Shown in pieces: positions 15,629 through 64,000 of a stretch of DNA of 64,000 nucleotides. Both the position numbers and the translations under genes were made by a program. Under the pieces are notes generated by a model. It searched no databases, was not told the origin of the DNA, and saw only the letters and a program-made list of their open reading frames with translations. How positions within the stretch are numbered: position 1 is the first letter of the stretch; the number at the start of each line of letters is the position of its first letter. The DNA comes from Blasia pusilla (taxonomy: Eukaryota), in assembly GCA_050084515.1 (NCBI GenBank), contig CM114271.1, positions 6,572,001 through 6,636,000 on the forward strand, given 5' to 3'.

Positions 15629-15878
15629 TGTTATATTTTAGGTTTCTTTTCGCACCCTTTCAGCGATTTATGAAGCCTGGTTTGTACTCTTTCCTAAAAC
15701 TTAGGAAAGAGTAAATTTTTAGGTTCACCACGGAGAGGTTAAGAAGCTGTTTGCGTTACTACGCGGTTCAAAACGAAGCTTGCACAACAAGGAGATATCA
15801 ATTATCGGACTAAAAGCACATGAGGCTTCAACGATTGTGCCAATGACAAGTTTTTACCAAGAATTTATGCGCACCTCT

Positions 15879-26400: not shown

Positions 26401-28263
26401 ACTTTTGTTCATGGAGGAAAATATCACTAAAATACCAATAAACCTTCATGAACTCTTGCATGTTAGAAACTCTAGAGGACTAATTTGAATTGAGCTAGTT
26501 GCCATGGAGGGCAAACAACATCCCATTGGAGGACTCCCACTCTCCCATACAAAAATTACCCGCATGATAAGTCCACAATGAGTTCCAAATGGATAAAACC
26601 AATGTGCGGTCCTTTCATGGGTTCGCTCAAGCTCTTGGAGATTTTTGGACAACTCTGGAAGCTCAGATAGTGGCTCCTTATAGAGTATGGCTGTAACATT
26701 TTCATCTTCGATAGCGAGAACATAAAATGCAACCAAGTCTTGTATGAAACGGACAAAGGATGCTACGGTGTTATAAAGATTGGAAATGCAAACCTTCCTT
26801 AGGTAATAACCATCCTCCTCTTCACTCGATCGTAACAATTGATCGCTTTTCCTCAAATGAGGGATGTATGCGCCTCTTTTCCATGAGACGTAGTTCTCAT
26901 ATTCGGCCGGAAGCTTAAGGAGCGCTTACGATTCCATTTACCTCTAGAGAGTGAAGTAGGGGCAGTACCAGGTGCGACACTCTGGGGAGGCGAATGAAAC
27001 GCGGATGCGGATCACTTTCTCCAAAATTGTTGATAGAGGATATGTTGGAATTGTCCATGTTGACTGGGCCACAATAAGCCGAACGTACCCGAGTGCCTCC
27101 GCAAAAAGTGAGAAAATAAACGAACCTCCTCCACAAGAAGTAGACCCACCAAAGAGGAAACAACATGCAACCAGCAAAAGAAAACCTGCCTGCAAAATAA
27201 GCCAATGGACACGCCAAAGCTTGGACAAACAGCGCGATGACTCAGCAGCGACTCAACACGACGACTAAAGGAAACACCAGCAGAATGGCCAAAATGCCAA
27301 AATCATACCTGTTATAATCGTTGGAAGCGGCTAGTGTTCCAAATAAACAAATCAGAGATTTTTATTGGCCTTGTAGTGGCGCCCCGCCAAAATTATTCAA
27401 ATGCATTCATAGGCATGCGTCCCGGGCTGGCCTGACAAGATACCATCCCATCTCACATGACATCCCATATGAACTCATCCACGCATTCATGTGCACATGA
27501 ATGCATGGATGATTGATTTGGGCACATGAATGCATTCTCGAATGGATGAGCGCAGGCGGCGCGCGTGGCTTGTAGTCAACCAAGGGATAGCCGCAGATAT
27601 GGCGAACCACCGAGCAAATATGGCACCACGGCGAGTAGATATCGGGCGGCCTAATGACGGTTTTACGAGCTCAGATGGTTGAGCCGGTTGGCCAAGAGGA
27701 GTTCATGTCGAGGATTTGTTATTTAACGCAAGGCGGCATTGAGAGGGGTGGGAGGAGACAAAAATAAATAAACAAGTGTAGAGAATACATGAATAGCCCC
27801 GATGGAAAAAAAACTAGCTCCTCGTTTCGAGGGGTTAGAACCAAACTACCGAGTTAATTGAAAGTTTAAGACGGTCGGGGTAAAAAAAGACACGGGTAGT
27901 AGCAGCCAGTAATGATCGGAGTTGAAAATTTGCCATGCCTTCGTCTCCGCATGGCAGGGAAGTGGGAGCAGCAAACGAACAAACGGGCAACGGTTATGCG
28001 GTGGATCGCGGGCCGGGTTGAACGAAGCGTTGAAGACGCGCGTTGGGCGTGGCGCAGGGGAAGCGGGCATGCAATGCGAAGTGCAGCTCCCGCGTTCTTT
28101 GTCCAAGCCCGGCCGTCCGATGGACGAAGAAAGCGAAGCCAGAGGGGAGCCAAGAACAGACCGAAGACGGGAGGGACAGACTACGGTCGTGGGAGAGGGA
28201 AGAAATCGCTCGAACTGAACGTCGTCACAGGGTCAGTGAAGAAGGAGCACGAACTGCAGAGCC

Positions 28264-31200
28264 ATGGGGCGATCGAGAGGGCCTCTTGCGGCCGCGATAG
28301 ACGAAGATGGCGGGTGGTTCGGGCACCGGTAGGAAGCTTGACTCGTGATGATTTTGAAAATATTCGCTTTTTCGCTGGACGATTGTCGTACGCGTTTAGT
28401 GGATTGGGAATCAAAATATTTGAATGGATGTTTAGGGTTGGGTGAAACTGCCAAATAGTGCTGGGAGGGGATTGGAAATGCTGGTGTCTCGGAAGAGTAG
28501 GGATGGGATTGGGATTGGGATTGGGATAGGTGCGGGATGGAGTGGTGCCGTGGAGAAAGCCAGATTTCTTGTATCATGAGTGTTTAAGAGGAAGCTTTGA
28601 CAGTCAGTTGTGAATTTTGAATTATGAGCATCTTTTTGGAGGGAAATTAGCGTGAGTGTGCATGGCATTCCGATTGGCGATCACTTATCATGGTTCGACT
28701 TTCGGAGCTGAATCCGCCCTCATATTGTCCGGGTTGCAGTGTTAAATGAATAATTGTCTCAGACCAGTCAAACTGACGTAAGTTTTAAGAAATTCGGGAA
28801 TGCGAGTGACGCGATGCATTTTGAAATGCGGTGCTTTCAAGGTAATAAACAGAATTGTTACGGATTAGACCATCGAGGACAATTATAAACGAGGAAAGAT
28901 AATCTGAAGAATCGTTATATTATCTGGTGAAGTACTGCCGTAAATGGTGGATTGTTGCAGACCTCATTAAATCTTATGGAGACCTTCTCTTTTAATTGCT
29001 TCCCTGACATGCCTCGGACTCTACAATTGTATTTTGCGACTGTCAAAATTTGACCTGTGTTTTGCTCTCCAAGGGGCCCAATAGACATCAGAGACTAAGA
29101 ATTCCTCCGAAAGGAAACTTATCCTGGAACATTATGATTCGAAACCTTAAAACATCTACTGTCAGCTACTCCTTCTGTTGTTCCTTTGACGTAGGTCTCT
29201 ACCAGCGTGAAAAATATCCCTCTGTTCTTATTAAATCCATTCAGATCTACTCATCAGAGTTTTTTTGGATTTCCACATTCCACCAGGTTTTATATTATTT
29301 TGATGGCAAGAAGAGTTTTGATCATGTCCACTTCAGTCAGAAATATCAACGGTGTACAAACGATTCCTGGCCACACCTAAATTATAGTTTCCCAGTCTCG
29401 TCGTTTTAACATGATTTACGAACGGCCTCCCCATGGCGAGTTTCTTCTCTCTCCTTTAGCAGTTGTATGCAAAGTTTCTAATTGTTTAGTTTATATTTCC
29501 TCGGAGGTCCTAGGTAATCTGTAGGGTTAATCACTTAGCTGACTGCACAAGGGTGTGGACTAGATTGAATGTTATTTGCAATCAAGTATCTTGAGTTGGC
29601 AGTTCGTGTTCCCTGATGGTTGTAATGCTTAATAAATGCAGTTTACTTCAACTGCACAACTGTCCTTCTTTACTCCTTAAAGTAAGAAGATAAACTAAGG
29701 AATGGACTTGTATGAAAGTCATCTCCTCCATGCCATACATTTTGACTTGAAAATTATCTCCAAGCCATTGAGAAGTCCAGGTCACGTCGGCCTGTGTAAA
29801 AGTTAGGTGTCCTGCTCTACAGTATCTTGGATGAAAATTTGTGATAACTTTTCTCAATGCTCAAGATTTTCAGTGTGTTGCAGTAAGCTCCATTCACATA
29901 GTAGTCACAAGTTTGTACTGGTGAGTCAAAGGTATATCTCACTCTCTCATTGAACAGGAGTGCGACTCATAAGTCTAATGGAGCCTCAGGTACCCTCATC
30001 TATAAGAAGTAACTCAAGCTGTATAGATTGTCACTCAAGTCAGTTATCAACGTCCAGATCTAAGCACTCGAGGGTACTCTAAACTGCACTAAGATTATTT
30101 TAGAAACTGTAATGGAGGAACACAGAATTCTAACCACAATGTCACCCAATCTCTAGATGTATTCCATGGCTCGAAGGCTGTGGAGTTGTATCTCTAGGTG
30201 GTCTGATCATTCATAGGGTTAGGTTGGCCAGTTGAGGTCATAATGGTTGGCATTTATGCAACTCGACAAATCGGTGCATCTCATTTCCGGATCTTCCCAT
30301 GAAGGGTTCCTTCTGCATCCTGGAAATGTCTGTGCCTTTGTGCGAAAAGCCTTCCCATCCAGGAAGCTAATGAACTTGTTCACCTCAGCCTGAACGTTAC
30401 ACCTTTGAGAATGTTGCTCTAATGGAATGTAACATTTGCTGTATGCATGAACGGTAAGCCGAGTGCGGCAGAAGTTAGACAAGCAAGAGCAAGCTTGCAA
30501 CCTAGCTAGGTGGCATTGCTAGCAGTTATGAAGCGGTCTGCTTGTTAAGGCGCAGAGTTGAGATATTTTAAGTTTATTTCCTACAACATTTTGGGTTGCA
30601 CTAAAAAGAGTTCTCAAGAAAGACAGTTATTTGGAATCCTGTGCAAAGTGAGTTTATTCTGATGTTGTTGCGCTAGATGAGCCCTATGTCTTGACTAATC
30701 TTATGCCTAACACAGGTTCAAAACAGATCCTCCAACTCAGTGTTTTGATATATTTTGCTACAACATGTACTTTTGTTGCCCCGTGGAATCGTTTCATGTT
30801 TCCCCTTCTGAAATCTGCCTTACTAGTCCTTATCCTTGACCTGCTGTACTGTTGGTGACATACAGGTCCAAGCGAAGACGGCTTGTGTTGGGTGGAGATA
30901 ATCTGGATCCTGGATCAGCTGGTGAGTGGAGCGATTACGAAATGATTTTCTGTGTACTTCTAAGAATGTTTGTTTCTGCTCTAGAAATTAACAAGAATAT
31001 TGTCTACTTCGAGGGATAATCATAACAGCAGTTATCTCGTACATTTAGTTTCCCTACTCCAGGACAAACTATATCCTTTTTATGTGCTCACCATCCTCAG
31101 TAATCATGTATCCTGGCTTGATCTAGATTATCCCATTGATAAGTGAATTTTCTGAAGCGCCAATCTTATGTCGAGGATACTTGTATGGGATTGCCGGAAT

Positions 31201-42000: not shown

Positions 42001-43242
42001 GAAGGATCTTGCTCGAAACATTGATATGACATAACCGTCCCACATACGAGTGACGGTCCACTCGAAAGCGTTACGCTTACGTTGTATCTCGCTCGTGGAA
42101 GACCGGTTATGCCAAGGAGTACTGACGGGCTCACTGTAGCGGCTGTCGGGGGGAATCTGTTTACGACAAACACCTGCTGTCAGACATAATTCCTGTGACC
42201 GATAGAGATGTCGATTCCAGTGTCATCTCGCAGCCTCTTCTTAAGAATGTTCCAGAATTGCGACAAGATGGGAAAGAAAGCACCACTACATCCATTCTAC
42301 CTCTCAAAATCGTCGAAGATAACAGTGTCAGGAACAATTTCGCTGAATTTTGATATGGCATCCAGCTCCGTGCCTGCAACTGCTCATGCCTAATAATCAA
42401 GACAGTGCTGAGTACATTTCAAGAAAAAACTTACTTCTGAACTTCTACCCTTTGAAACTTCCTAAGAAATTCAACAAAAGTTGTGGCCATCGACTTCAAA
42501 TGCAATTCTCCGATTCAAGCTCTGCACTCCGGTGTCACAGAGATAGGAAGGCAAAGTGTGTAACCTACCAACGCTGATTTCTGCACGGGGAAATAACACA
42601 GCTCTACGGGCGGTTGATGATACTCGCGGGTTGTGGGGCACAAGACTCCTCCATTTAACCGCAGGTATGGTAGACACAAAGTTACGAATACAAGGCTGCA
42701 ACAAGAAATTCAAGGACGACCTTCAATAATAGAGTACGCCCCAGACCAAAGGACGTTGATGCACAAGTTAATATGAATGTCTCACTGCGGCGCGTTTCTT
42801 CAATAAACAATTGCTACTCGCTCTGTGTTGTGTGACAGTACATGCATGAAATTTTGAAATTCCTTCACATACAGGGCACCGCTAATTCTATCCAATTTTA
42901 AAGTGGCATGTGCCCATGCTTACGAGTCGCCATCGGTTGCGACATTCGTACTCTAGTTAGATTTCTTAGAATCATTTCCTTTCGAAGAGCATCGGAATTT
43001 TGGACTGATCATCTACGTAGTGGAAGCAGAAAAACTACAATACGAGGCATGAAGATGAACTACAGCTTCAGAAACGTGTTCATCATAAACCATGTCAATA
43101 GACCCTCATTCTGTATAAGAGGCTTGAGCGCCCAAGAATTTGCCTTGGAGCCATTGTGCACCCGAGAGAAAGGTGTCCGCGACGAGTCCGCCGATGATCG
43201 TCGGGTAGAGGGCAAAACAAAGAGACCAGCTGCGATCGCCAT
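39078..43242 (-). CDS. Transaldolase, plant plastid-type (Arabidopsis AT1G12230-like family) with transit peptide
   Basis: Exons (minus): first from ATG 43242 ([17 protein letters not shown]..., donor uncertain), 42695-42569, 42373-42301, 42156-42081, 41919-41836, 41660-41556, 41162-41082, 40722-40658, 40247-40178, 40028-39951, 39736-39639, 39483-39348, 39224-39078. Motifs: [50 protein letters not shown] (Schiff-base Lys), [10 protein letters not shown]-terminal KIWPPPNV*. Confidence 0.93.
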
Positions 43243-43884
43243 TACACCAACTACTAAAAGCGCTCCGAGAAAGGAGCGACTGCCGATTGCTATGAAGGCA
43301 CAAGGGATATCGTTCAAGATCCTCCAGGACTCGATCAGACACCGTGAGCGTGCATACTTTGTTCGCGAAGTCCAAAAGCAGACGCCCGAATTCCCGGCTG
43401 ATGAACAAAGGCAGGTAGAGGTATGTGCGAGGTGGCTGCGCTCACAATCGTCCTTGAGGCGGAGTGGAGTAGGTGGATGTCGTTACCGAGCGCTCTTCTC
43501 GTGTCTTCTTCAACTCCCGTCCAGAGAGTTTTGTCAGACTTTCCTTGCCGTGCTATGCTGTAAGATGCAGCAAAGTGGACATCACAGGTTGGACGCCTGT
43601 ATGAGCTCTCAGTCCAGGCGCCGATGATGTCTGTCATTAACCATGAACCGCGACCGAGTGACTACTCTTGTGAACACAACGACTATGGTTGGTTGCATTA
43701 TACTACAAACACTACTAAAATACGCGGTTCAAATACTAAAATACGCGGTTCATGAGAAAACTGTTGGGAAATTCTCCAAGTTCGATTTGCACTCCTTACG
43801 CAAAGGGATTATCGTGGCTGTGTTGCAATGAGATACATCGCCGGCGTGGTTAGAGGAGCGGACGAATGACCATAGCCTTCCGAG

Positions 43885-44099: not shown

Positions 44100-45499
44100 C
44101 TTCCGAGAACTGCGAAAGTCAGGTCACCGGCAATAACGAAGGACCGCGCAGTTCACGAGAAACACACTCACTGACACCCGCCTGCCTAATCTCCCCGACT
44201 TCGCCTTCGCCGTCAGGCCCATTCTCATCCTGTGCTTACCATACGGCAACGTTATTCTAAGACAAGCTCGCTCATGAGTCATGACATGAGTTGCCAATAT
44301 CGTATCCCTCCGGGAAATGCTGCCTGTCACTCTGGGCCATATCAGCATTTAATGCAGACATCAGATCTGCCAACAAATGGCGAAATCCGCCTAAAGGACT
44401 CCCAAACTATTCATGAAAGGACACGATAGCCAGCATCATGATCGCAATGCCCTCGTGCCAAGCACAAACTCCGGATGGCGTTGGCATTGAGGTGGACGAC
44501 GGGCGTGCTGGTGACTAGATGTGGCAGCTACGCCACGGCCAAACGCCCTAGCTGCTGCGCTGTTGCGCGCATTAATGGCCCGAACACTTCCGAACCCTAA
44601 TCTCCCACATCTAGCCCGCCAGCGAGGCCTCGTGCTATCCGCTCCGACTGGGTCCAATGGGATCTGGGAATTTCGGAAACCCGGTCTCTCATTATTCTGA
44701 CTTCACATGACTTCCGACGGAGTCGGACGGACGTCTCTCTTTACCTCCCAACCCTTCACAGTCGTCGGAGTGAAAAACGGACGACGACGAGACACGTCAA
44801 CGGAAACCATCGTGCCGATGCCAGACAGTTTGTTAAGAACGGAGATATTATTGACGGGACGAGCCGAGCTTTTGGGAGAGGGACGGAGCACGGGCGGTCG
44901 GTCGGTCGGTCGGTCGGCCGGGGAATCCTTTTGTCCACCGTTAAACATGCTTCCCACGTTGTTGGTACGGGGCTAAATAGGGCAATTCAAATCGGCCCCC
45001 GTCCGGTGTCACCTTCTATCGCCACAGGGATCACACATGTGTTTTTTTTAATATTCTTTATTCTTAAATTTATATTATTATCGGAGAACGTTTTCTTATT
45101 TGTAAATAAGAAAACGTTTGGTTGAGTACCAAAAACTCACGGTTGAACATTTTTAGGTACTTGAGAGACCTCCAAACGCTAATTGGGTCAAGTTTCCCCA
45201 AATGCATACCATCTCCTTGGGAAGTCCCTTCTCCAAACTTCAATCAATCTTCCCAAGTGGCTTGCCTATCTATACCCAAGTGCATTGATTATTTCTTCAA
45301 GGTGCATCCCCTAGCTCAAACTTTAAACAAGGCCAAAAACGCATCACGGTTAGTTTCTGGTTCAAGAATTTGAGCGGGTAGGGAAGGAGAATGTTCCCCC
45401 CTATAGATATTTCTAGGATTCTCCGTGAGAACCCCACCTTCCCCATTGTCTCACTCGGGCCCTTAATTTCGGCCCTAAACCCAAACGTGGTTCGCGACC

Positions 45500-48990: not shown

Positions 48991-50305
48991 ACATTCACCA
49001 TATTGATGAACATCGTCTTTCATAAGAAGATAGATGGGTATGTTATCAACTTTATTGATAACATATAAATTTACTTGAAATCACTAGAAGAGCATGCTCA
49101 CCATTTGGAGGCAGTTTTTTCAACATGTAGGATCGCGTAAGAACAAGTTAAATGGCAATGTGGAGAAGAGTATATTCGGCTTGAGCAAGATGATGTTTTT
49201 TGGCTATATAATTAGTGCAAATGGAAAAGGTCTTGACAGGCATAGAGCCAAAGCTATTGATGATTGCAAACCTCTATCATTATGAAGGTGATGAGAAGGT
49301 TCATTGGATTTTTCCAATTCTACTAGACTTATATGAGGAACTTTTTAGTTATAGTGAGATCTCTTACAGATTGGACCAAGAGTTTTCCAACACCGCATAG
49401 ACCCAAGAAGTCAATGTAGCAATCTATTGATTCAAAGAGATCTTATCACACAAGCCTATGCTAAACATGGACATGTTCGCGAACATAGATATTTTCGAAA
49501 TGAAAACATGATGCTAAAGCTAGTGGAGATCAAAAAATCGTTCGAGGTGCATACGGATGCTAGTGACTATGTCATTGTAGGAATGTTGATGCAAGAAGGG
49601 AGACATGTAGCATACAAAAACAAGAAGCTTAGCAATGTAGATCATAGATGGCCTACTCACGAGAAAGAGTTGTTTGTAATGGTTGATTTTATGAGGAAGT
49701 AACATCATTATTTGGGGCTTTACTAGACTTGGATGTACACTAATAACATATCCCTCAAGCACTTTGAGATACATAATCGCGTTACACCAAAAAAACTTTG
49801 ATGGCATGATACCTTGGTGCTCATGAATGTGAAACTAGTCCATAAGCCACTAAAATCTAATGTCAACTTTAGGCATTGAGTCACAAAGATGAATACGTCC
49901 CATCAACTACACAAGTCATGAGAGCTATGTTTCCCAAAGAAATAGATCTAGATAGACGACGTTGTGAGGGATACAGGAAGGATTCTCAAGCACATGAGTA
50001 CTTAAGGAAGTTGAAGTGGGAAGATAAGATAGCTAATATAAGTTCGAGGCACGATTTGCTAAGGTTTAAGCAAAGCCACATCTATGTCAATAAGAGTAAG
50101 TTGTGGACTAAGATGGCGATCACATAGGTTACCAAGGAGCATTATTTCAAATTGAGATGGAAAGTTCACAAGTGCATTTTGGAAATATTTTTTTATAAGG
50201 TTGAGGACAAATTTGAGCATAAGCATAACTTTCCATCCTCAAACAAACGGACGGATGGAGTGAGTAATTTTGGTCATGAACCAATATCTAAGGAATTATG
50301 TGAGT
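48991..50305 (+). pseudogene. Old, internally deleted Ty3/gypsy pol fragment (RT C-term, RNase H, partial integrase), same family as 57.7-59.7 kb
   Basis: Colinear with 58043-59665 (e.g. FEVHTDASDY...QEGR.VAY..KKLS...RWPTHEKELF; TQVMRAMFPKE). Lacks the segment equivalent to ~59115-59480. Many stops and frameshifts. Confidence 0.9.
49466..49510. mobile_element. 45-bp insertion with 8-bp TSD (minimal hAT-like element or footprint)
   Basis: ATGCTAAA at 49458-49465 and 49511-49518. Insert begins and ends with CATG. It is absent from the paralogous pol (GAACCAGTGTTGAAGCTG, ~58500). Confidence 0.7.
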
Positions 50306-51500: not shown

Positions 51501-54143
51501 GTTGTGTGTAGCTTTTTCGTTTTTTTTGTACAAGTTTGCAAATTTTAGAGGGAGAAATCAGCGAGGAATCGCTACCAAAATTTCCATTAGAGAGGACATG
51601 GCTGGCTTCACAACACTCCCTGCCTATTTTTTTATGAAAGGTTGAATCAAAGAAATGATTTAACAATGTCGTAGATCAGGAAGTTGTGCATGTTGTCAAA
51701 GAAATGATGCATAATTTGGACATTTAAGCACAAAGTTATGATTGTTTCCATGGGCTACCATAGCCAACTTGTGAAGGAAGGAGAAATTTGGAAATTTGTG
51801 GTAAAATTCTTAGTTAAGAGACATAAAAAGTTTAAAAAATCATTTTATCTTAAGGCATAGGACAAGGATAAAAATTTATTTGAGGGTAAATTGAAGTGGA
51901 AAATTTATTTAATGGATGTTAATCCAAGATTTACGGGGCTTAGTGGAGTATAAACCAAATGTGAGATAATTTTGGTGAGTTGATCGTTGGTTTAAGGGGT
52001 TAGTGGAGTGGGAAAAAACAAAAGATATAGACTTTTAAAGAAGTTTTAGAATAGAGCCATATTTACCCATATGTGAGATATCATAATTATCATTGACCTT
52101 CACCATATGTCTAAGCCACCCTTGCTCCGTCTATTGGCGCCCGTCGACGACGTCAATGACCGTTCGCGGACAGTTTCTTCACTTTTATTGATTGGACGGT
52201 AGGCATAGACAACCGTCACTTTTTGTTACTTGTGACTTGTGACCACTTTCTTTTGTATGACCACTAATAGTTATTGATTCCTAGCAGCATCGGTTGAAAC
52301 AATACAACTATGGGGTCATCCACCATCGCGGACTCATGATCACTATTTGCGAGTAGGATCAAGTAATGGAGTTGAACTTGTGATTGATGGGGTTTGAGTT
52401 TTTGCTTTGCTTTTCTATTTTTCTTGATTGGTAGCTACTTGACGACCATTGAGTACTGTATCATGATGCCCGTAGTTGCAATACGCCAACAAAAATTGCC
52501 GCGTCGTGTCGTTGCTGGTCACACCGTACCATCTTGATGGCAGAGCCACTCCAGCATCCATGAGCAGAGTGTGTATTTTTTTATAAAGGAGGATATGCCT
52601 ATGCGTGCCACATCTCATCATCAATTTTTGTTTGTAGTTGTTCCCTACCGCCAGTGTTGCATCGTACTGCTGTACCCGCATCGCCCCTCAAGGAGATTTG
52701 AGCATTATCAATACCAAGAAGTACAACCCATTGATTGACAGAGGTTTTCTTTACGATCAAGTTGGGGTTGAGTTTACACTTGGTGAGGAGTGACACCAAC
52801 ATCATTCAAGTTACCTATTTTGGTCCTTTTCCATTCATGTGTGAGGGATTTCCATATATTGGGTTGTTATTTGGGATATTTGGTTTGTACGAACGTTAAG
52901 AGCATTATTGATGTATGAGATTAGGGGACATAGACCTTTGTGGGATGTCCATAGTTGAGGGTATGCAATGTTGATGAGACGATATACCATTGATTTTGTG
53001 CACCATGCCGCTTGTTGCCGCAACGTACACATCTTAGTGAGAGGAAGTGTATGTTAAATGCTACATATTTAGATTGAGTGTTTGAGTGATTACTCGTGAG
53101 ATTGAGATTGACCGTGTGAGAGGGGCTCATGGGTCATCACGACATGCTTTTAGGATTGTGAGAGGCGAGGTGGTGGACTTGAGAGTAGCTCTAGGGAATT
53201 TATGCAGAGTGGTGCGAGATTTTGAGAATGTCCACGTGAGAGACCACCTCGACCTCATGATGTGTCATCCTTAGACGAGGGAGAGGCTATAAAGGAGTTT
53301 GTTTGTATGTTATCGCACATAGTGAGTGGCCCTATCATCTGGGCATACGAGATGGACGACCAAGATAGAGGACCGCGTATGTTTTTGGGAGCTATGGATA
53401 CTATAGACTTGCATGACTTCATCCCGGAGTTTAGGAGTTTGCATAATTTGTAGAGGGCTAGGAATTCTAGAGAGTTGAATCCGTTCACAACGTGGAACAA
53501 AATGTTCCAGCACTCACAGAGGGCGCCCGTGGGCAATTACCATGAGTTTTCCTAGAGGTACGCACATGAGATTGAGGCCCAAAGATCCTACTAAGATCCA
53601 TATTACGTGTCATTAATTGAGCCATTTCTAGATGAGGAGGAGGAGCTAGGAGAAGCCACATCCTCAGCCACTAGTGAGGTTTTGGGAGGGATGAGTCGGA
53701 TTGGGGCAATTGCAATGTCTTGTCGGATTTTTTGTAGGTTCAACCCCGTAGTTGAGTTCTTTGCGGAGTTGTGGAGGAACTTCCAGCCTTTTCCAAGCAT
53801 GCATGACTTCCATACGCATACGAAAGAGAGTTTACGAGAGGCAAAGGTCCAGGTCGTCCAGGCATGGTAAGGGATGCTATAACAAGACCTACAGAGATGA
53901 GTGAGGAATGCGATATTTTTTATCCGTACCTCACATATATTGAGGGAAGTGTTTGAGATGGTTTACGCCTCCATTTTCCCAACTTGTCATTTGCATCGGC
54001 CGTACAAGGGTTCCAAAGTTCCCTCCCGAGGGAGATTTCTTTGCTAGGGATGTAGGACTTGCAGCGAGTAGGGACCATTTATTTGGTAATTGTAGGTTGG
54101 CCATGTCTAAGGTCAATTGAATGCTGGACAAGGTAGCAGTTTA

Positions 54144-55365
54144 TGTGATACCCACAATTTTGTACTCTTGAAGAATATCTCTTTTTATTCAACGAAGACT
54201 CTTGTACATTATGATTTTGATTATGATTATTTATTATTATGAGGAAGAATGAGTGAATCACGAAGCTCCTGGGACAAGGCAGAGAGATGGAAGATCAAGG
54301 ATTTCCCTTAGAGGAGAGGAAAATGCAATAACGAAGTCTCAAGACTCAGAACGAAGCTTAACGAAGCTCTGTCTACGAAGTGCTTCACTACATGACAAAG
54401 CATAACAAAGAAAGGAAGAAAAGAAGAAAGAAGTACTTCGCTCTTGTACGAAGCGTGAAGCACGAAGCACTTGAAATAAGAACGAAGCATGGAGTACTTC
54501 GTCCTCATGAAGTCCAGCAAAGCGAAGCTAAGAATGACTGTGATTTCAAGCGACGCATGTTAGAACAGTTAGACTAGGAAAGGGCGCGACCCTTTGTATC
54601 AAATTGGTAGTTAGGACAGTTTTGTACCGCGGATTCACAAGGATCGTAGGAAAAGCTAAGAGAACCATAGATCTAGGTAGTTATAAATAGTGAAGAGGCA
54701 CTAGCTTCATCAAGAACGTTTCAAATCTTTGGATCACTTCCACTCCAACGAATATTTAAGAAGCAAGGCAGAAGCCATAATCATCATTCTCTCACGAAGT
54801 CCTTATGTTGTAGGAATGGTCCAAGCAAGAGAGTAGTACCCTCTCGAGCTTGTATACACTTTGAAGCTTTCTCGTTCTTGATGGAGTAGTAAAGCAATCA
54901 TTCATTCATTCTGATGTGCGATGCTTATGTCTGCATATTCTTTTTGGGTCTGCAGAATGAAGAGTGAATCAGGCGAACCTTTCTCATCAGTGAAATAATC
55001 AACCTGAGTTGTAGGAAATCTGTTTGATACAGAGTAGCCTGCCGAGACGGATTGAGTTCCGAAAGTAGGAGAAGCCAGCTTTTGTGTTGAGATCTCTGTG
55101 ATGTTTCATGATGTCGAGAGGAAAATCTACATGAACATGCTGTCAATTCCACTAGAGAGAATCGAGAAAAGATCCTTTGGTACTAAGAAAGGTCAGAAGA
55201 TATTGATACGACATTGAATATAACCCACACACATTTAAATACAACTATTACAACATAATTGTAATTCCGAACTCTCTTTTCATCAAACAATGATCCTCTT
55301 GGGGATCGAACTTATTAAAACGACTATAAAATAGAAAGTCTTCTACATTACATATAGCAAGAAAC
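54144..55365 (+). mobile_element. 5' LTR (~1.2 kb) of Ty3/gypsy element
   Basis: Starts TGTGATACCC, has TATAAATA at ~54682 and repeated ACGAAG motifs, and is immediately followed by PBS and gag. Confidence 0.7.
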
Positions 55366-55369
55366 TTTT

Positions 55370-55389
55370 TGGCGCCGCTGCCGGGGATC
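55370..55389 (+). promoter_or_regulatory. Primer-binding site complementary to tRNA-Asp 3' end (Athila-type)
   Basis: TGGCGCCGCTGCCGGGGATC, one mismatch to the complement of the plant tRNA-Asp 3' end (TGGCGCCGTTGCCGGGGATC). Confidence 0.85.
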
Positions 55390-55419
55390 ATATTCTTTGT
55401 TGAAAAGGGAGAGAGATAC

Positions 55420-58400
55420 ATGGGGAATCCGGGAGCGGGGAAAGAAGCCTCGTCTCTTGGAAGACCCAACCAACTAGTTCTTACTGAAGACCATATGATA
55501 TCTCTGGCTATCCCCCTCAGGAAATGGATGAAAGAAGATAACAATAGATTTGCTACATTGATGCTAGAAAAGATAGAACAATTAATTAGTCTTGTCAATA
55601 AACTAGGCGCCGAACGGTGCTCCGCCCATGAACGTCGGTTGTACTTGGTGATGACCCGATACTTCTGTTTATGGGAGGAAAACCTCGCAGGAAGATTAAG
55701 AGCACCTGGCACACTCCTGTAGGCTTAGGAAGTAGAAACATTTAATTTCCCTCCATGGACCCCTACCTTCTTGCGACCGTGGGTGCGGAAGCAAGCTCCC
55801 TAATCCCCGAAGGGGCTCGTGGAAGGCTCCCGGCCCTCTTCGCGAGATCAGCAAGAAGATCACCCGGCTTGGAGACCTCCTGGGCTGTCTCCCGGTCTTC
55901 GTCTTTGCACGAAGCCCAAGAGCAAGAAGAGAGACAGGAACAAACTCTCCACTACGTCCCCTGCCAGTTCGCAGTCGGACGAAGAGTCAACCTGGGACCC
56001 CTTTGGGGAGTCAAGGGACGCGGAGCCGACCAAATCAACTAGAGCGGAGCCGCTACCTCCTCCCTCCCGAGCCTCAAGCCCGGGACCCAGCAGCAGACCA
56101 TTCCCCATGGCCAATACTAAGAAGACGCTGCTAAGGTACCCCTCCTTTGCTGGGGGACGGCGAGATGATGTGGACAACTTTGTGCTTGAATTTACCCATG
56201 TAGCCAAGGCAAATGGGGAAGGCTCAGAGGAGGATTTGTTGTGAGTCTTTCCTGGCCTACTCAAGAAGCGAGTAAGCCAGTGGTATGAGGGTCTCGGAGC
56301 GGACGTCACGGAAACATGGAAAAGGGTATTGGAGTCCTTCCTACATGAGTTCTGCGACCTGGAGTTCGAGGACAGGCTTCTTACGAAGCTTCGCGACCTG
56401 AAACAAAAAAAGAGGGAAACTCTCCGGGAATACACACAAAGGTTTCGCAGCCTGGTGAATAAATTGGAACACACCACTACCTCGCAATTGGTAGATTGGT
56501 TCGTGTCAGGACTGTCCAAAGAAATGGACCGGTACTGCCGGCGAGGCCAACGAGATTCCCTGGAAGCAGTCATAGCCTCCGTAGAGGCTTTCGAAGCCTC
56601 AGAGAAGTCCCGTAAAACAAGAAAACGGCATCACCAACGATGAGGTTCGTTGCAAACTAGTGCTTCATCGGAGGACAAAGCGTCTTCCACAGACACGGAA
56701 TCCTCTATGGGGGATACTCCGGAGTCCTCAGACTCTGAAAAAGATTTAAAATCTAAACGGAAAAGAAAAAGCACGCGCCACCACTCTCCCAAGCATCGAA
56801 GGAAAACCCAACCCACAAAGCACCTTCCCCAGCGATCGGAAAGTCCAGTAAGGGGCAAGGTCGTATGCTACAACTGTGGCGAACCGGGGCACCTGGAGAA
56901 AGTGTGTTCGAAACCGAAGGTTAGTAATGGGAGTATGATTGCGTTTGCTGCTAAGCATTCATTGGCGGGCGATCTCGAGACGTCCCTTCAAGTCACCAAG
57001 AGGACGCACAATTTGGTGTACCTAAGATCCAAGATTGCTGATCGCGATGTGTTGTTGCTCGTGGATACAGGTGCTTCGCACTCCTTCCTAAGCCCGAGAA
57101 TCGTGAAGGAACTGGGGCTGTCTACCTCTAAGGCGGATGAGCCCATTCGAGTAGGATTTGCAGGAGGCAAGTCTCATCAGACTTCTGATTTGGTCTTGGG
57201 TTTGACAGTAGGATGCGGGGTATTTGAGTTGAAGGAGAATTTCACTGTGTGCGAAATGGATGGCATTGACGGAGTCTTGGGGAATACATTCCTAGACGCA
57301 TATGAGGTGGAGTTAAGACGTAGATCCTTGAGGTTGAGCGTCTTGCTAAAAGGCAAACGGTTACATGTGCGGTTGGTCCGTGAGGTTCCAGCAAAAAAGG
57401 AGTTATTGAACTCGATCACAAGGAGGAGCATGACTGAGTTGGAGGATGGATTTCTCTGCTTGATGAGACAAGTGGAGGAGGCTACAAGCGATATCTGCAG
57501 AGATCGGACACTTTGCCGAGGGGAATCCCAGAACCACTCTAGGAAGTGGTCAAGGAGTTTGAGGATGTCTTGACAAATGAGCTTCCGACTGAATTGCCGC
57601 CGCATAGAGCCGTTGATCATAAGATAGAGATCATACCCGGTTCCCAACCGCCTTCAAAAGCACCATATAGGTTGAATCAGAAGGAACTTCTTGAGTTGAA
57701 AAAGTAGTTAAGTGAGCTCTTGGAAAAGGGTTACATTAGGACTAGCAAGTCACCTTATGGAGCACCTGTTCTCTTTGTAAAGAAGAAGGATGGAAAGATG
57801 AGGCTGTGTATTGATTACCGTGCACTGAACAAAGTGACGGTTCGGAACAATTATCCTCTTCCAAGGATAGATGATCTCTTTGATAGGCTGGCAGGCGTGA
57901 GATGTTTCAGTAGGATTGACTTGAAATCAGGATATTACCAGATTCGGATTGTCGAGGCAGATGTGGAGAAAACTGCGTGCAGGACGAGATACGGTTCCTT
58001 TGAGTTTGTAGTAATGCCTTTCGGTCTATGTAACGCGCCTCCAACGTTCACCACATTGATGAACTCCATTTTTCACAAGGAAATGGATGAGTATGTTATC
58101 ATCTATATTGATGACATACTTATCTATTCAAAGTCACTAGAGGAGCACGTTTGACATGTGAGAGCGGTCTTGTCTAAGCTAAGGGCAAATCAGCTGTATG
58201 CGAATGTAGAGAAGAGCGAATTTGGTTTGAGTAAGATCAAATTCTTGGGTCACGTGGTCAGTGCAAATGGCGTCAGTCCATACATGGAAAAAGTGAAAGC
58301 GATTTCCGAGTGGGAACCCCCATCCACTGTAAAGGGGATGAGGAGGTTCATAGGTGCGGTGCAGTTTTATCGTACTTATTTGAAAAAAATTTCGGGAATT

Positions 58401-60409
58401 GTGAGACCTCTCACGGATTGGATAGCAAAGTTTGCCAACACGACCTGGACCCAGGAAGTTAATGAGGCATTCAACCGAGTGAAGCAGATTCTATCGCAGG
58501 AACCAGTGTTGAAGCTGCCGGAGTTTGACAAACCGTTCAAAGTGCATACCGATGCTAGTGATTTTGCGGTTGCAGGAATGTTGGTGCAAGAAGGGAGACC
58601 GGTGGCATACGAGAGCAAGAAGCTTAGCGATGCTGAAAGGAGATGGCCTACTCACGAGAAAGAGTTGTTCGCGGTGGTACATTGCTTGAGGAAGTGGCGG
58701 CATTATCTAGGGCTCCACAGGACTCGAGTATTCACCGATAATATATCACTCAAGTATTTTGAGACCCAGGATCGAGTGACGCCGAAACAACTGCGATGGC
58801 ATGATACCTTGGCGCTGATGGATATTGAGTTGATTCACAAGCCAGGTAAAGATAATGTGATTCCAGATGCGTTAAGTCGCAAGGAGGAACACATGCCATC
58901 GATGACTCAGGTCTTAAGAGCAATGTTCCCTAAAGAAACAGATCTGGAAAGAAGGATTCGTGAAGGATATATGAAGGATGCTCACGCAGGGGAGTACCTG
59001 AGGAAGTTGAAGCAAGGTGAGAAGGTGGCCAACATAAGTTTGAGGCACGGTTTACTAAGGTTCAAACAGAGTAGGATCTATGTAGGGCAAGGAAGGATGC
59101 GAACCAAGGTGTTAGCGGAGTGTCACGACGGACCCTCGGCAGGACATAAAGGAGAGAAATCTATGCTAGTTGTTCTGTCGAAGCGGTTCTTTTGGCCCAA
59201 CATGAAAGAGGATGTTGCTCAATATGTGAAGACCTGTGTGACCTGCCAAGCGAATAGAGTCTCTTATGATAAGAAACAGGGCTTGCTGCATCCCTTTCCG
59301 ATCCCAGAAGGACCCTTGCAAAGTGTGAGTATGGATTTCATCACGAGTCTTCTGGAATCTGAGGGATACAACGCTATACTTGTGATTGTTGATGGGTTTA
59401 GCAAGTTGGCGAGATTCGTGCCGACAGTGGATTCCACAACGGCTTATACGACGGCGCAACTGTTCCTCGATAGCTGGTGGCGTACTCACGGTTTGCCGAG
59501 GAGCATTGTTTCAGATCGGGATCCAAAGTTTACCAGTGCTTTTTGGAAGCACTTGTTCAGAAGGTTTAAGACCAAGCTGAGTTTCAGTACGGCTTTCCAC
59601 CCACAAACGGATGGACAGACTGAAAAGGTAAACTCTATCGTGAATCAAGACTTAAGGAATTATGTCGAGTCTTTGATCAACGCGATTGGGTCAAGTGGTG
59701 AGCATGGCGGATCATCGCTACAACTCGACCAAGCATTTCGCGATCGGAGAATCTCCGTTTTCCTAGAAAATGGACGAGAGCCGGAAGGGCCTCTTGATCT
59801 AGCCCTTTCGAAGGGTACTACATTGGCACAAACACGACAAGTTTACGGCGAAGGTTTGTTGGTAGAGATGCGAGAACAGGAAGAGCGCGCGAGGCGAAGT
59901 CTTGCAAAGGCTCAAATGAGGTACGTTAAGCATGCTAACAAGAGTCGGCGCCAAGTACGATTCCAAGTTGGAGAACAAGTGTGGTTGAGTGTAAAGAACC
60001 TCACTCTTCCGAAAAGAGTTGTCTCATGAAAGCCGCTTTTGCCAAGTATCTTTGGACCGTATGTGATTGTGGCAAACCCGTTTGAGGATGTGTACACGTT
60101 GAGGCTGCCGGACGATTCAAGATTCACCCGACCTTTCATGTGTCATTGTTGAAGAAATATCTTCAAGATAATGGACGTTTCGCGCGGAGACAGGTGGTGA
60201 GACCGCACCCGGTCATCATAAATGAAGAGCCGAAATTTGAGGTGGAGACCATCTTACGTTCGAGGCGTCGAGCCAACAAGTATGAATACTTGGTAAAATG
60301 GAAGGGCTACCATGTGAAGGAGGCGACTTGGATTACGGAGGCGGATTTGGAACATGCGCAAGACTTGTTGCGCGACTTCAAGCGAACACAAGCGAAGCAC
60401 ATACGTTAG
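55420..60409 (+). pseudogene. Ty3/gypsy gag-pol polyprotein with C-terminal chromodomain (chromovirus-type pol), inactivated by stops/frameshifts
   Basis: Gag (RYPSFAGG...LKQKKRETLREYTQRF), CCHC knuckle CYNCGEPGHLEKVC, protease LVDTGASHSF, RT ([35 protein letters not shown]), RNase H (TDASD, EKEL, TDN), integrase (HHCC, SMDFI, SDRD, QTE, GPY), chromodomain FEVETIL...YLVKWKGY...TW. Confidence 0.97.
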
Positions 60410-60697
60410 TACAAGGAGAAGCTAGAGACATGACATGTAACCAGTGGAATCTTGGGCCGAAGGCCGTTGTAACTAGAATATGCTAGTGTTGCAATAAAGG
60501 AGTGTATGGATTTGGAGATTCGATGCCAGAGTTGATTGCAATTTGTATGTGGTAGTGCATGGCTATGATCGTTCATCATAGGCTTAGGATGTACGACAAG
60601 AGGACATACAAGGAGTATTTGAGGTGAGAGCTCGTATGTGGATAAGCACTTAGAACAGGACCTTGTGTTGGATTACACTCGGGCTCGCCCTAGCGTC

Positions 60698-60708
60698 GGC
60701 GGGGCAGA
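60698..60708 (+). promoter_or_regulatory. Polypurine tract followed by TG (putative start of a 3' LTR at 60709)
   Basis: GGCGGGGCAGA|TGAAG about 290 bp after the chromodomain stop. Confidence 0.6.
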
Positions 60709-62080
60709 TGAAGTCTGTCTTGGGGCTTGGGGTGATCTTACTTGTGGCCACATAAGTAAACTTAGTGACGCGCCTAAGTCGAATACGAGAGCGACCCAAT
60801 AGTAGTACGATTTGTAGACCAGGTAAACAGGTGTTATGTTTACAGGAATGAGTTAGAAGAGTCTAAGGTTGCACACTTAGTTAGCTTATTTGATAGGTTA
60901 GTTCCTTGGAACTAGTCCAGGCTTATCAAAGAGGAGAGGCTAATAATTCTAAGTGGGGAAAAGCGACAACTAGAGACTAAGAGGAATTGCGGGTTAGCCA
61001 CCAGAACGCAATTCAATGTCAAGGGGTAGGCTGCCCATGAGACTTGACATAACAAAGGTTTGCGTTGATGAGGGCATCAACCTCTAAAGAGGGGTGAGTG
61101 TCGCGACCCTCATGACCAAACAAGTGCCAAGCGGGACATCGGAACATTAGCGGGCTCACGCTAAGATGGTTTGCGCGTTGGAGTAGTCTCAAAGAGGAGA
61201 CAAGAGACGAGACGCGAGCGAGGAGTCGCATTTCAGATGTTATGGTTGCAACCGAGAAACCTGGACCAAACGCGGAATGAGACTTGAAAGAAGTCGAGTC
61301 TAGGAAGTGGGTTGCCAAAGGAAAGATCCGGATTTGGAACGCCACTAGCGTTTGAGAGTTTTTTACTGTATTTATGGCCATAACTTTTAGCACCGAGATG
61401 CGTTTGGATCAAATAAGGGTGCGTTGGAAAGCTTATGGAGAGCCGGTCCAAACAAACCAAGATCGCTGCAAACGCATGAGCAGCGGCTGAGAAAAAACCC
61501 GAAAACGACTGTAAGTGGAGTCAGGTTGAGGGCCACAATGAAGGGCCCGACCCTCTTTTTCCAAAGGGGGGTTATTGGAGAACCCCAGAAGTACCAGTAA
61601 GGGGGAAGGTCTCCGAGAGTGCTTGGAACCCAAACCCCACTTTGGGCGCCGCGGGGCGGCTCAAGGGCATGGAACGGAACGCGAGTTTGGGGGTTGGGTT
61701 GGAAAACCTGCACCAAGTCCATTGAGGAGATTTTAGACATCCCTCTTGGATTTCACCCCGCGACTCAATTACTTGGGTCTCGGTTCGGACTCACCCGAGG
61801 ACCGTTGAACAGTTGGGATCGCTAGGCGCGCAAGTGCCGTTTCAGATCTCTGGACTAACCAGGAAGTCTGTTCCAAGTCTTGAAGGACTTGCCATGTTTT
61901 GGAAACTAGGAACTAAGGAAGGTTGAGCTTGATGAGACGCCGAGTTGAGGACTCAGTGGATTGGAACGCTGGTTGGCCCAGACCCGACTAACGAGAGTGC
62001 GTGTTTGGGTGCAGATCGGCGATGAGTTCGTGACCTACTGAACGTACGCTTCCGCAACACTAAAGATTGACGTTCAAGGA
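60709..62080 (+). mobile_element. LTR-like non-coding region, not homologous to the 54144 LTR
   Basis: Starts TG directly after the PPT and has LTR-like content (CATAACTTTT...CGTTGGAAAGC). Right boundary not defined. Confidence 0.45.
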
Positions 62081-62082
62081 GA

Positions 62083-64000
62083 GTAGGGGCGCAACAATTG
62101 GGCTTGACGAGAGCCGATGTGGAGCGTTTTCCATTCCGAATACATACATCCTTGGGTGGAGCGAGTGCCACACAGTATATCACCCGACATGAGGTCATGG
62201 TGAGGATTCATCCTGGACACCCTACAAATAAGTCTATGGTGCGAGCCAAGGTGATAGTAACTGATGCAGAGTCCTATGACGTCTTGGTTGGTGGAGTAGT
62301 GTTGTACCCGATGGGGTTTTCCCTGGATCGTTGGGAGGAGTCAGCGTCCTATAGACCAGGATGGCAGTCAAATGACGGGCGCCTTAGCTCATTACCCAGT
62401 CGATTTACAAGTGCAGTGATTGAGCGACGGCCAGGAGAGATGGCGAACTTAGCAGCATTTAGCAGCGTCATCACTTGGCCTATTGACTTGATTGAGGGAC
62501 ATGTCCATGTAGAGGATACTCCCGTTCTTGACATTTCTATGGAGAGGAGTATCATGGTAGCCGCATCAGTCCGTGGAGGAGAGGTGCCGCTTTGGGAGCT
62601 TTGACGCTTAGCCATTGAGCATGTGCAGACTGCGTGGAGCGAGACCTTTGCCCCAAAGGATGACGGATCAGAGGAACCCGAGGTAGCCGAGAGTGCTATG
62701 ATGACGCCCTTGGATACCACACCCATTATGTGGCGCATCCAAGAGGAGGGTATTCAGATGTTGGATCTCTTTGGAGGGATCAACCTTGGGTTAGCTGTTG
62801 TTTTGGAGGCAAGAGTACGCGTGCAGTAGTACTTGTATGTGGAGATTGATCATGTTACGAGGCGTGATTCACTTCACCATGTGGGGAAGTTACGCCTCTA
62901 TTTTCCTTACTTATTGTCTGCATCCGCTGTCCAGGGATACCAAAGTTCCCTACCGTGGGATATTTCATTGCTGGGGGCACAGGACTTGGAGCGGATAGGG
63001 GCCATAGATTTGGTCATTGCTGGTTGGCCGTGTCAGGGCCAATCGCGTGCTGGATGAGGTAGCGGGCTAGTTGACACTCGGTCCATGTTATTCTGGGAGA
63101 CAATGCGGATTGTGCGACACTTGCAGGAGCATCAGTCCCGTTCTTTACCATACATTTTGGAGAATATGCCAATCTTTGGCAATTCGAGATCACTGGCGGT
63201 GACGAGTGCAGATCATGTGCGTGCATGGATGGCTCGCCAAGATTTTTGGATGCGACGAGTGTAGGTTCTAGACCACACTGCTCGCATCTTTGGTGGTCCC
63301 ACATGAGGTTTTACGGAGGGCGTATGCTCGCGTGGAGCGTCCCTCCGATTTGTTGGTGGATTCTATTCTACATCCAGCTCATCGAAAATAGGTAGGTAGG
63401 CATGATGATCGACCGCCGTTGAGTGTGGTCAACAGGATTGGCATGCCACGGGCAGCCTTTCCCACATTTGTGAGTTTTTCTGCTTCCTATGCATTCCAAG
63501 AGGCTGAACCTAGCTAGGTTTGGGATGACCAGGTAGAGAGGTTGGTGGAGCCCAACGTTGATGAGCGAGAGCAAGGGATGGGATTCCCCACATGAATGAC
63601 GATAATACCGTCACTATCACAAGCATCACGACGTCATGTCTTGGGTCAGGCGATGGACCTGAACTGCTTGACATGGATTTTCACCTTAGTCATAGCTGAG
63701 CAGCGTCTTTTGAGGATACGATAGATCACAGCTATTGCACGGGTGAGCCCCATGCCTACCGAGACGGTGGAGGCAGTGGCTGGGGGCGAGATCCATCATG
63801 GGTGATCGGGAGAGACACCCTTGGACTTCTTGGGATGTTTTGCAGGTACGCATGGAGATGATAGCCACAATATCAAGCGCGATTTCGGGTACTGCACGTG
63901 GAGAGGAGAGTTCTGTTGTCCATAGCAACCACCAACACCCGCGCCGGAGAGTCGTACCGTAGTCACGATGGAGACTTGGGAGCTAGATATGGGCCCTAAG
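62083..64000 (+). pseudogene. Second retroelement polyprotein fragment: 5'-truncated retropepsin-like aspartic protease + C5-cytosine DNA methyltransferase + linker (RT expected beyond window)
   Basis: Protease C-terminal half ...IHTSLGG...VIVTDAESYDVLVGGVVLYPMGFSLD is in the same frame as the MTase N-terminal half (ORFs 62098, 62623, 62833). Interrupted by stops and frameshifts. Confidence 0.8.
62749..63690 (+). pseudogene. C5-cytosine DNA methyltransferase catalytic domain (DNMT3/DRM-like, motifs I-X in canonical order)
   Basis: Motif I LDLFGGI (62761); II YVEID; III WDI; IV DLVIAGWPCQGQSRAG (PC at 63028-63033); V DTRSMLFWE; VI YILENM (63160); VIII LDATSVGSRPHCSHLWW (after frameshift); IX EPNVDEREQGMGFP; X RRHVLGQAMDLNCLTWI (~63630-63680). 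Confidence 0.92.

Follow-up and report, generated by a model that had tools for sequence, protein, structure and literature searches.

The closest described counterpart of the element reported here is KnitGypsy-Dnmt3 of Klebsormidium nitens, in which a Dnmt3 DNA methyltransferase (DNMT) lies inside a gypsy element (de Mendoza et al. 2018, PMC5890265). Elements of this Gypsy-DNMT3 kind have been in print since 2018 and are cited as such in papers of 2025 and 2026. Klebsormidium is the only streptophyte host so far described, and according to PMC5890265 it holds few copies. SymbioDIRS-Dnmt3 and SymbioLINE-Dnmt of Symbiodinium are likewise retroelements with a cytosine-5 (C5) methyltransferase (MTase), but they belong to other classes (DIRS and LINE) and to another host lineage, and their authors regard them as independent acquisitions (PMC5890265); SymbioDIRS-Dnmt3, which carried out de novo CG methylation in yeast, is the sole functional precedent. 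The EpiLTRs (bioRxiv 10.64898/2026.05.21.726589) also combine a DNA methyltransferase with a chromatin reader in long terminal repeat (LTR) elements. In Cymbomonas and Euglena they bear a chromodomain, an adenine MTase and, at the 3′ end of pol, a DNMT related to DNMT4; in the elements described here, the reader is a PHD finger and the methyltransferase, of Dnmt3 type, follows the protease. The present copy lies at the end of a stretch of 64,000 nucleotides from Blasia pusilla (contig CM114271.1, positions 6,572,001 to 6,636,000), which as a whole is called the window. Window positions 62080-64000 are very probably a dead, 5′-truncated copy of a Ty3/gypsy-type LTR retrotransposon with a methyltransferase domain, its 3′ side cut by the window end.

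The kind of element is already known from Klebsormidium; what is new is a bryophyte-clade member. As in KnitGypsy-Dnmt3, an intronless, non-permuted Dnmt3-type MTase lies in the gypsy coding region of a streptophyte, with DIRS-like repeats (PMC5890265). The DNMT of KnitGypsy-Dnmt3 is, however, placed in the Pol polyprotein open reading frame (ORF) in that paper, whereas in the close relatives reported here it lies in the first ORF, before a conserved stop; here, too, a PHD finger stands behind the integrase, and the copy shares a clade with liverwort and Sphagnum copies. Klebsormidium sequences were absent from our protein-search matches, and kinship with KnitGypsy-Dnmt3 is judged by the published description; relatives in Mesostigma, Coleochaete and Closterium amount to a spread across streptophytes. 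Plant host DNMT3 and DRM enzymes have the catalytic fold and motifs in common with the domain described here, which differs in having no introns or accessory domains, in being unpermuted and high-copy, and in lying between a protease and a reverse transcriptase (RT). Chromoviruses also carry a chromatin reader at the integrase C-terminus, but the reader here is a PHD finger and not a chromodomain, and the chromovirus in the window has no DNMT. No literature naming liverwort or moss DNMT retrotransposons, the conserved stop or the PHD finger was found in a search outside which lay the supplements (PMC5890265, and the DNMT trees and tables of PMC12344493), Repbase and Dfam.

The identification of the window copy is carried by its homology to P0152, an intact relative of 827 amino acids (aa), residues 206-821 of which align to window positions 62080-63917 at 53% identity (tblastn, E 4e-159). 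At that identity and E value, the match to a joined protease (PR) and DNMT is not due to chance. Coding is contiguous across the DNMT domain in this alignment, with no introns. In frame 1, read from 62071 on the + strand, the YDVLVGG of the protease (62275-62295) is followed by the linker and then by motifs I (LDLFGGINLG, 62761-62790), IV (GWPCQGQS, with the catalytic PCQ, 63022-63045) and VI (YILENMP, 63151-63171) of the methyltransferase. Motif VIII (63264-63296) is read in a second frame, motifs IX (63563-63589) and X (63635-63658) in a third. Motif names and consensus (I FxGxG, IV PCQ, VI ENV, VIII RxR, IX, X) follow the usual C5-MTase scheme. The frame-1 read-through, with X at stops, scores 35.2 bits against PF00145 (cut-off 22, E 1.2e-8), with relatives at 31-51 bits, and PF00145 is the sole family found in the three + frames of 60400-64000, where BAH, chromo, UBA, PWWP and other host-type domains are absent.

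A first-pass annotation of the window, made from the letters alone, had described much of this. The C5-MTase motif series I-X, in order and with the catalytic PCQG, is present as it had claimed, and the DNMT is intronless. The frame that it had taken to be shared with the protease is shared by motifs I-VI, but not by motifs VIII, IX and X. Its retropepsin-like half turns out to be the rear part, YDVLVGG included, with the catalytic DSGA region missing: in relatives DSGA lies at P0152 residue 196, and because the 5′ break falls ~7 residues past this position, the catalytic Asp is absent from the window copy. The further polyprotein-like sequence that it had seen behind the MTase exists, and consists of the ORF1 tail, the stop codon at 63923 and the opening ~25 codons of the ORF that follows. 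Its exclusion of a host MET1, CMT or DRM gene agrees with the missing accessory domains and introns, the unpermuted motif order and the read depth given below.

It had also called the copy dead, and so we find it. Seven in-frame stops lie along the path of P0152 (62602, 62827, 63055, 63389, 63515, 63593 and 63722) and there are at least four frame changes, including those near 63234-63293 within the DNMT domain. Motif VI reads ENM where relatives have ENV, and both arginines of motif VIII are replaced; owing to these substitutions, the domain appears to be a family member by descent and not a working enzyme. Gag was not found upstream of 62080 in the window (Pfam on the three + frames of 60400-64000; tblastn), nor were long direct repeats flanking the DNMT copy within the window (blastn, word sizes 14, 11 and 7). 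The RT of this copy would fall past the window end, as the window reaches only ~25 codons into the second ORF.

The remaining parts of the element are seen in relatives. A HMMER search of 1.84 billion representatives with a 398-residue read-through query (P0001) gave 1177 matches at E ≤ 1e-3, 19 of them at ≤ 1e-30. A protease part and a DNMT part in the same order are found in 31 of the 155 relatives that were fetched; 20 have the protease only and 103 the DNMT only. One relative, P0056 (2188 aa), holds CCHC, aspartic protease, DNA_methylase, RVT_1, RNase H, integrase zinc finger and rve in that order in a single protein. Pfam protease families exceed their cut-offs in P0023, P0016 and P0014, and CCHC does so in P0023, P0056 and P0062, lying just below its cut-off in P0024. 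DNMT, RT, RNase H, integrase and PHD are combined in 9 of 13 longer relatives, according to precomputed Pfam lists.

A scan of metagenome contigs with a five-sequence alignment returned 215 relatives, of which 80 were kept; 18 of these are close (L001-L018). The PR-DNMT junction is present in all 18. RT, RNase H and integrase (RT-RH-IN) follow the DNMT in the same orientation in 15, beginning ~200-450 nucleotides past the end of the P0152 match, and they do so in the same frame as the DNMT in 13 of the 15 loci reaching RT. As for the loci in which RT is not seen, L012 stops at the contig end, L017 ends too soon and L007 breaks within the DNMT. L009 is nearly intact: its ORF1 of 1369 aa (protease at 708-763, DNMT from 940) is followed, after one stop, by an ORF2 of 1047 aa with RVT_1, RNase H, H2C2, rve and a C-terminal PHD. 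This PHD finger (PF00628, cut-off 24), which lies behind the integrase, scores 40.6 bits in L009 (residues 990-1034 of ORF2, L009:5086-8226) and 34.6 bits in L015 (L015:14501-15901). Read across the relatives, the family order is gag(CCHC)-PR-linker-DNMT, a conserved stop, then RT-RNase H-integrase-PHD. L001 and L015 each have direct repeats of ~340 bp (91-94% identity), spaced 8.75 kb apart. In L015 the repeats (7164-7507, 15810-15924, 15922-16264 and 16264-16378) are split, in the layout A1 ... B1-A2-B2; L001 is laid out like L015 up to its contig end, and L005 and L011 stop after B1, without A2-B2. The elements are depleted in CpG (0.54-0.73 observed/expected), with an excess of TpG/CpA.

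Of the 18 close loci, 14 have an in-frame stop in the homologous position between DNMT and RT, the other four being unreadable there. Its context is TAG or TAA followed by CAA CCC or CAA CCT in subfamily 1, and TAG CAG TTA in subfamily 2, to which the open copies L009 and L010 belong; examples are at L009:5083 and L015:12512, and the window has TAG CAA CCA at 63923. In subfamily 1, an ATG stands two codons past the stop. The dead close copies carry 4-15 random stops each, and because the stop between DNMT and RT is common to these randomly decayed copies and to the open ones, it is ancestral. It follows that, in the close relatives, gag, protease and DNMT together make up the first ORF, and the DNMT is not part of a single continuous polyprotein; the stop is missing from more distant members, P0056 among them. 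The conserved stop suggests programmed readthrough, which would place the methyltransferase in the abundant first ORF. Gammaretroviral gag-pol and tobamovirus replicase are arranged in a similar way: an in-frame UAG or UAA separates two ORFs, and the codon after it is CAA or CAG. The tobamovirus readthrough context is CAR-YYA, which fits the TAG CAG TTA of subfamily 2 and the TAG CAA CCA of the window. The differences are that the stop here comes after protease and DNMT rather than after gag, that subfamily 1 has CAA CCC, and that readthrough is here a prediction.

The type of METHYLTRANSFERASE was examined through the relative P0152. Among the 28 PDB sequences that P0152 matches (E ≤ 0.01), 27 are DNMT3A/B/C, the best at 6e-9, and one is M.HaeIII. 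An AlphaFold model of P0152, built on 25 family members, has a mean predicted local distance difference test score (pLDDT) of 66, with confident domains at residues 164-318 (beta-rich, pLDDT 84-92) and ~430-760 and a disordered stretch at 317-370. In a Foldseek comparison of this model with the PDB, all ranks listed, to 49, are DNMT3A/B/C (target TM ≤ 0.82, best E 3e-15). By these sequence and structure matches of P0152, the methyltransferase domain is Dnmt3-type, and because its motif order is unpermuted it is not DRM-like. A protein atlas returned only generic DNA-methylase clusters, with scores ≤ 0.80.

The DNMT of relatives is under purifying selection. Between L009 and L010, its nonsynonymous (dN) and synonymous (dS) rates are 0.031 and 0.266, giving an omega of 0.12 over 310 codons, and the protease has an equal omega; the Ka/Ks given for KnitGypsy-Dnmt3 is likewise low, at <0.2 (PMC5890265). 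Comparisons between subfamilies are saturated (dS 1.9-4.5) and were not used for omega. Motif I and ENV residues do not vary among the 25 aligned members, and P-C-Q-G is conserved at ≥90%. A linker dN of 0.69 for the pair L009 and L010 was dropped as an apparent artefact of misalignment to the P0152 anchor.

The relatives whose source is named belong to Marchantia polymorpha, Calypogeia fissa, Closterium, Coleochaete scutata (a transcript) and Mesostigma viride. When the DNMT part of P0152 served as query in a word-indexed search, 57 proteins were returned, among them 19 Marchantia polymorpha gene models (including Mp_4g09160, Mp_8g17980 and Mp_6g11220; RT and RNase H are present too in MARPO_0091s0058 and Mp_2g26090), two from Calypogeia and two from Sphagnum. 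More distant DNMT matches are also transposon proteins, for example a Scenedesmus 'pol'. In a FastTree phylogeny of 315 DNMT columns anchored on P0152, with 51 rows of at least 180 residues each and no outgroup of named host DNMTs, the window copy falls within a clade of Marchantia, Calypogeia and Sphagnum sequences (support 0.997), beside P0152 (support 0.85), and L001, L005, L006 and L015 group with Sphagnum (support 0.999). The window copy thereby appears to be a bryophyte-clade member of the Gypsy-DNMT3 kind. Two entries among the relatives stand apart. P0035, a predicted protein from Closterium sp. NIES-54, has rve ahead of RVT_2, as copia elements do, followed by a protease-like piece and a terminal DNMT; it represents a DNMT carrier of copia type or else a gene model that runs together parts of nested elements. 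NCBI lists P0188 (455 aa, 49% identity to P0152) as part of a 'Candidatus Obscuribacterales' metagenome-assembled genome, but it is probably a eukaryotic contig binned into a bacterial one.

The family is high-copy and transcribed in the organism of the window. Reads of one DNA run and three RNA runs with the same species label were mapped to 54001-64000 at ≥85% likeness. DNA depth over 62017-64000 is 348-2020x with both mate directions summed. As 318 of the 53,990 DNA reads are ≥99% alike, single-copy depth is at most ~5x, and set against this bound the observed depth means, as a rough figure, at least tens to hundreds of family copies. Loose ends of DNA reads number 1538 before 62097 (agreement 0.92) and 720 behind 62087 (agreement 0.59), from which it follows that two different repeats join at 62088-62096; other copies run upstream into the protease. 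RNA depth over the element is 5-54 with the first mate on the − strand, in all three RNA runs, and 0-7 on the + strand; assuming the usual stranded library type, these are sense transcripts. A word index of sequencing runs returned no RNA run, and six DNA runs with ≤0.17 of the words.

Seen against the relatives and the reads, the wider claims of the first-pass annotation mostly stand. The clade in which the copy is placed fits the land-plant-type genome that it had supposed, and intact relatives do exist: P0152 is intact, L009 nearly so, and both L009 and L010 are open. The gag-PR-DNMT-RT-RH-INT gypsy order that it had proposed is borne out by P0056 and by 15 of the 18 close loci, but the conserved stop splits the ORF of close relatives, and parts of the order are unseen in the window copy. 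It had held such elements to be no standard feature among land-plant LTR elements; the family is, however, no rarity there, with many copies in Marchantia, Calypogeia and Sphagnum. The comparison of dN and dS that it had called for on the MTase domain gave the low omega reported above. It had named two outcomes that would speak against a transposon, a junction peculiar to this locus and a single processed pseudogene of a host gene; we find neither, because the junction recurs and the sequence is a high-copy repeat.

We propose that the element would work as follows. Gag-PR-DNMT would be the main translation product, to which RT-IN-PHD would be added by occasional readthrough of the stop; in subfamily 1, the RT ORF might alternatively be reached by reinitiation at the ATG two codons past it. 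Cleavage by the protease in the disordered linker would release the MTase within the particle. Either at this stage or in the pre-integration complex, the enzyme would methylate the new cDNA or the integration site, so that the insertion would arrive pre-marked, and the PHD finger may steer integration. The step of cDNA methylation, which is raised as speculation in section 11 of PMC5890265, is put forward tentatively, and we judge it somewhat less likely than not. As a best explanation, the whole, comprising the identity of the copy and this proposed working, is in our view likely.

A number of points weigh against it. RT, integrase, gag and terminal repeats are unseen for this copy, so that its apparent membership derives from 1.9 kb of homology. 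Readthrough is predicted solely from the conserved stop and the CAA or CAG codon that follows; RNA structure past the stop, calculated for five sequences, gave z scores of -2.95, -0.89, -0.52, -0.87 and +1.37 with no shared fold, and reinitiation at the ATG of subfamily 1 is possible. The pointer to linker cleavage is predicted disorder and nothing else. The signal of selection comes mainly from the pair L009 and L010, because subfamily comparisons are saturated and the close dead copies have an omega of 0.4-1.1. Most RNA reads are <95% alike to the window copy and therefore report other copies. The Klebsormidium DNMT domain gave no methylation in yeast, a result that its authors call inconclusive (PMC5890265, section 10), and there is no streptophyte member with shown enzyme activity.

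Could the protease and the methyltransferase have come together by accident, as a processed pseudogene or fragment of a host DNMT3 beside a protease fragment? The locus is a nest of broken elements, and the window copy alone is without anything that defines a retrotransposon, as such an accident would have it. However, the same junction and order, with a homologous linker, recur in 31 of the 155 fetched relatives and in all 18 close loci, the P0152 alignment is unbroken from protease through DNMT, and the stretch stands at hundreds of times the depth of near-identical reads, with no host-type accessory domain found in 60400-64000. We consider chance juxtaposition ruled out by the recurrent junction, the unbroken alignment and the read depth, and leave it a negligible probability. 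A decayed copy of a domesticated host gene, a gag-PR-DNMT without RT and not a mobile element, would account for the predicted proteins P0024 (2159 aa), P0005 (1775 aa) and P0152, which stop after the DNMT and have no RT. Yet the conserved stop explains these protein ends, RT-RH-IN follows in frame in most loci that reach it, and the window itself retains the stop and the start of the next ORF; a large repeat family accords with the read depth and with how widely the reads vary in likeness, and its close copies are riddled with stops. Domestication is thus very improbable, and the same can be said of the element being of another class. Split direct repeats are the layout of Ngaro and DIRS-like elements, and the arrangement in L015, and partly in L001, would suit a tyrosine-recombinase retroelement of that sort in place of Ty3/gypsy. 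The Klebsormidium element is itself given a DIRS repeat structure in the legend to Fig. 4 of PMC5890265. In the relatives, nevertheless, RT-RNase H is followed by a DDE integrase, as in gypsy elements, with rve and the H2C2 zinc finger both exceeding their Pfam cut-offs, and no tyrosine recombinase was found in the Pfam-examined relatives; we give a DIRS or Ngaro origin only a slim chance.

A rival of greater weight accepts the Ty3/gypsy identity and gives the MTase another job: methylation of the element's RNA, a tether to DNA that is methylated or hemimethylated, by which the MTase and the PHD finger would jointly steer integration, or methylation of integrated copies, by which the family would curb its own activity and its harm to the host. 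RNA methylation and self-limitation are both raised in the discussion of PMC5890265 (section 11), and the Klebsormidium domain produced no DNA methylation in yeast (section 10). That the family has a chromatin reader behind its integrase in addition to the MTase fits a role in targeting, and the CpG depletion fits methylation of integrated copies, whatever its source. A purely non-catalytic tether is hard to square with a catalytic Cys and an ENV that are invariant or nearly so under purifying selection, and RNA methylation with a fold and nearest sequences that are those of the DNA enzymes DNMT3A/B/C and not of DNMT2. Some such other job is possible, though on balance we think it unlikely.

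The surroundings of the copy (Table 1) form a gypsy nest, as the first-pass annotation had it. In the neighbouring chromovirus, CCHC, Asp_protease_2 and Chromo (57.9 bits) were identified by Pfam, and RT to integrase by tblastn and translation. It keeps long ORFs, including a 624-aa RT-integrase ORF, and has a read depth of ~160-600x; an LTR pair for it was not found in the window (blastn at the same three word sizes). A further chromovirus piece lies at 49517-50087. The second, more degraded fragment of the DNMT family, 9 kb upstream of the copy described here, implies large internal deletions. The high-copy repeat that adjoins the DNMT element has no Pfam match and no match to the terminal repeat of the relatives, and Pfam found no family in the four long ORFs at 4577-5185, 27903-28445, 42902-43627 and 44601-45125; a host gene was not found. 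Between 54001 and 64000, the window has A/T where family reads have G/C at 249 + 200 sites and the reverse at 183 + 137; the excess fits C-to-T decay of the locus.

Table 1 Features of the DNMT element and its surroundings, in window coordinates
Feature	Position	Strand	Evidence
Second, more degraded fragment of the DNMT family: gag-front-like piece 53484-53786 and DNMT piece 53957-54137	53484-54137	+	77% nucleotide identity of DNMT piece to 62890-63063
Neighbouring chromovirus: gag CCHC, protease, RT, RNase H, integrase, chromodomain; no DNMT	56107-60409	+	Pfam; tblastn and translation
Unclassified high-copy repeat adjoining the DNMT element	61015-62087		DNA depth ~1140-1440x at ≥85% likeness; step up at 61015; loose ends at 62087
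Rear part of retropepsin (aspartic protease)	62080-62418	+	tblastn with P0152 residues 206 onward, 55% identity over protease part
Breakpoint between unrelated high-copy repeat (left) and DNMT element (right)	62088-62096		Read loose ends; tblastn homology from 62080
Variable protease-methyltransferase linker, in-frame stop 62602	62419-62748	+	Poorly conserved alignment columns; P0152 model pLDDT <50 at residues 317-370; many family reads diverge behind 62596
Degraded Dnmt3-type C5 DNA methyltransferase domain, motifs I-X in canonical order	62749-63700	+	PF00145 35.2 bits; motif coordinates
ORF1 C-terminal tail (HPWTSWDV at 63816-63839), one stop at 63722, two frame changes	63701-63922	+	tblastn with P0152 residues 781-821; translations
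ORF1 stop and context TAG CAA CCA, homologous to conserved DNMT/RT stop of relatives	63923-63931	+	Window translation; 14 of 18 close loci
First ~25 codons of second ORF (stretch before RT), ending at window edge	63926-64000	+	METWELDMGP matches KETWEPLIGPKL of relatives just past the stop

The window copy itself is an ordinary dead fragment that adds no functional evidence; its value is as a pointer to a land-plant family. It is paradoxical for a transposon to bring along a de novo methyltransferase, cytosine methylation being the main weapon of the host against transposons. A family that is abundant and transcribed in the organism of the window, has at least 19 gene models in Marchantia polymorpha and occurs in Sphagnum and Calypogeia moves the Dnmt3 question into a land plant for which genetics, methylomes and methylation mutants are available, and the conserved stop and the integrase PHD finger offer concrete experimental handles. 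It is conceivable, although we rate it as doubtful, that bryophytes including Marchantia polymorpha harbour a currently transcribed, high-copy LTR lineage that has a PHD reader on its integrase and a catalytically active Dnmt3-type MTase, produced at the level of Gag ahead of a programmed leaky stop, and that writes 5-methylcytosine on its own cDNA or insertion sites. If true, this would be the first land-plant case of a DNMT-encoding retrotransposon, and bryophyte transposons would themselves write part of the methylation that they carry.

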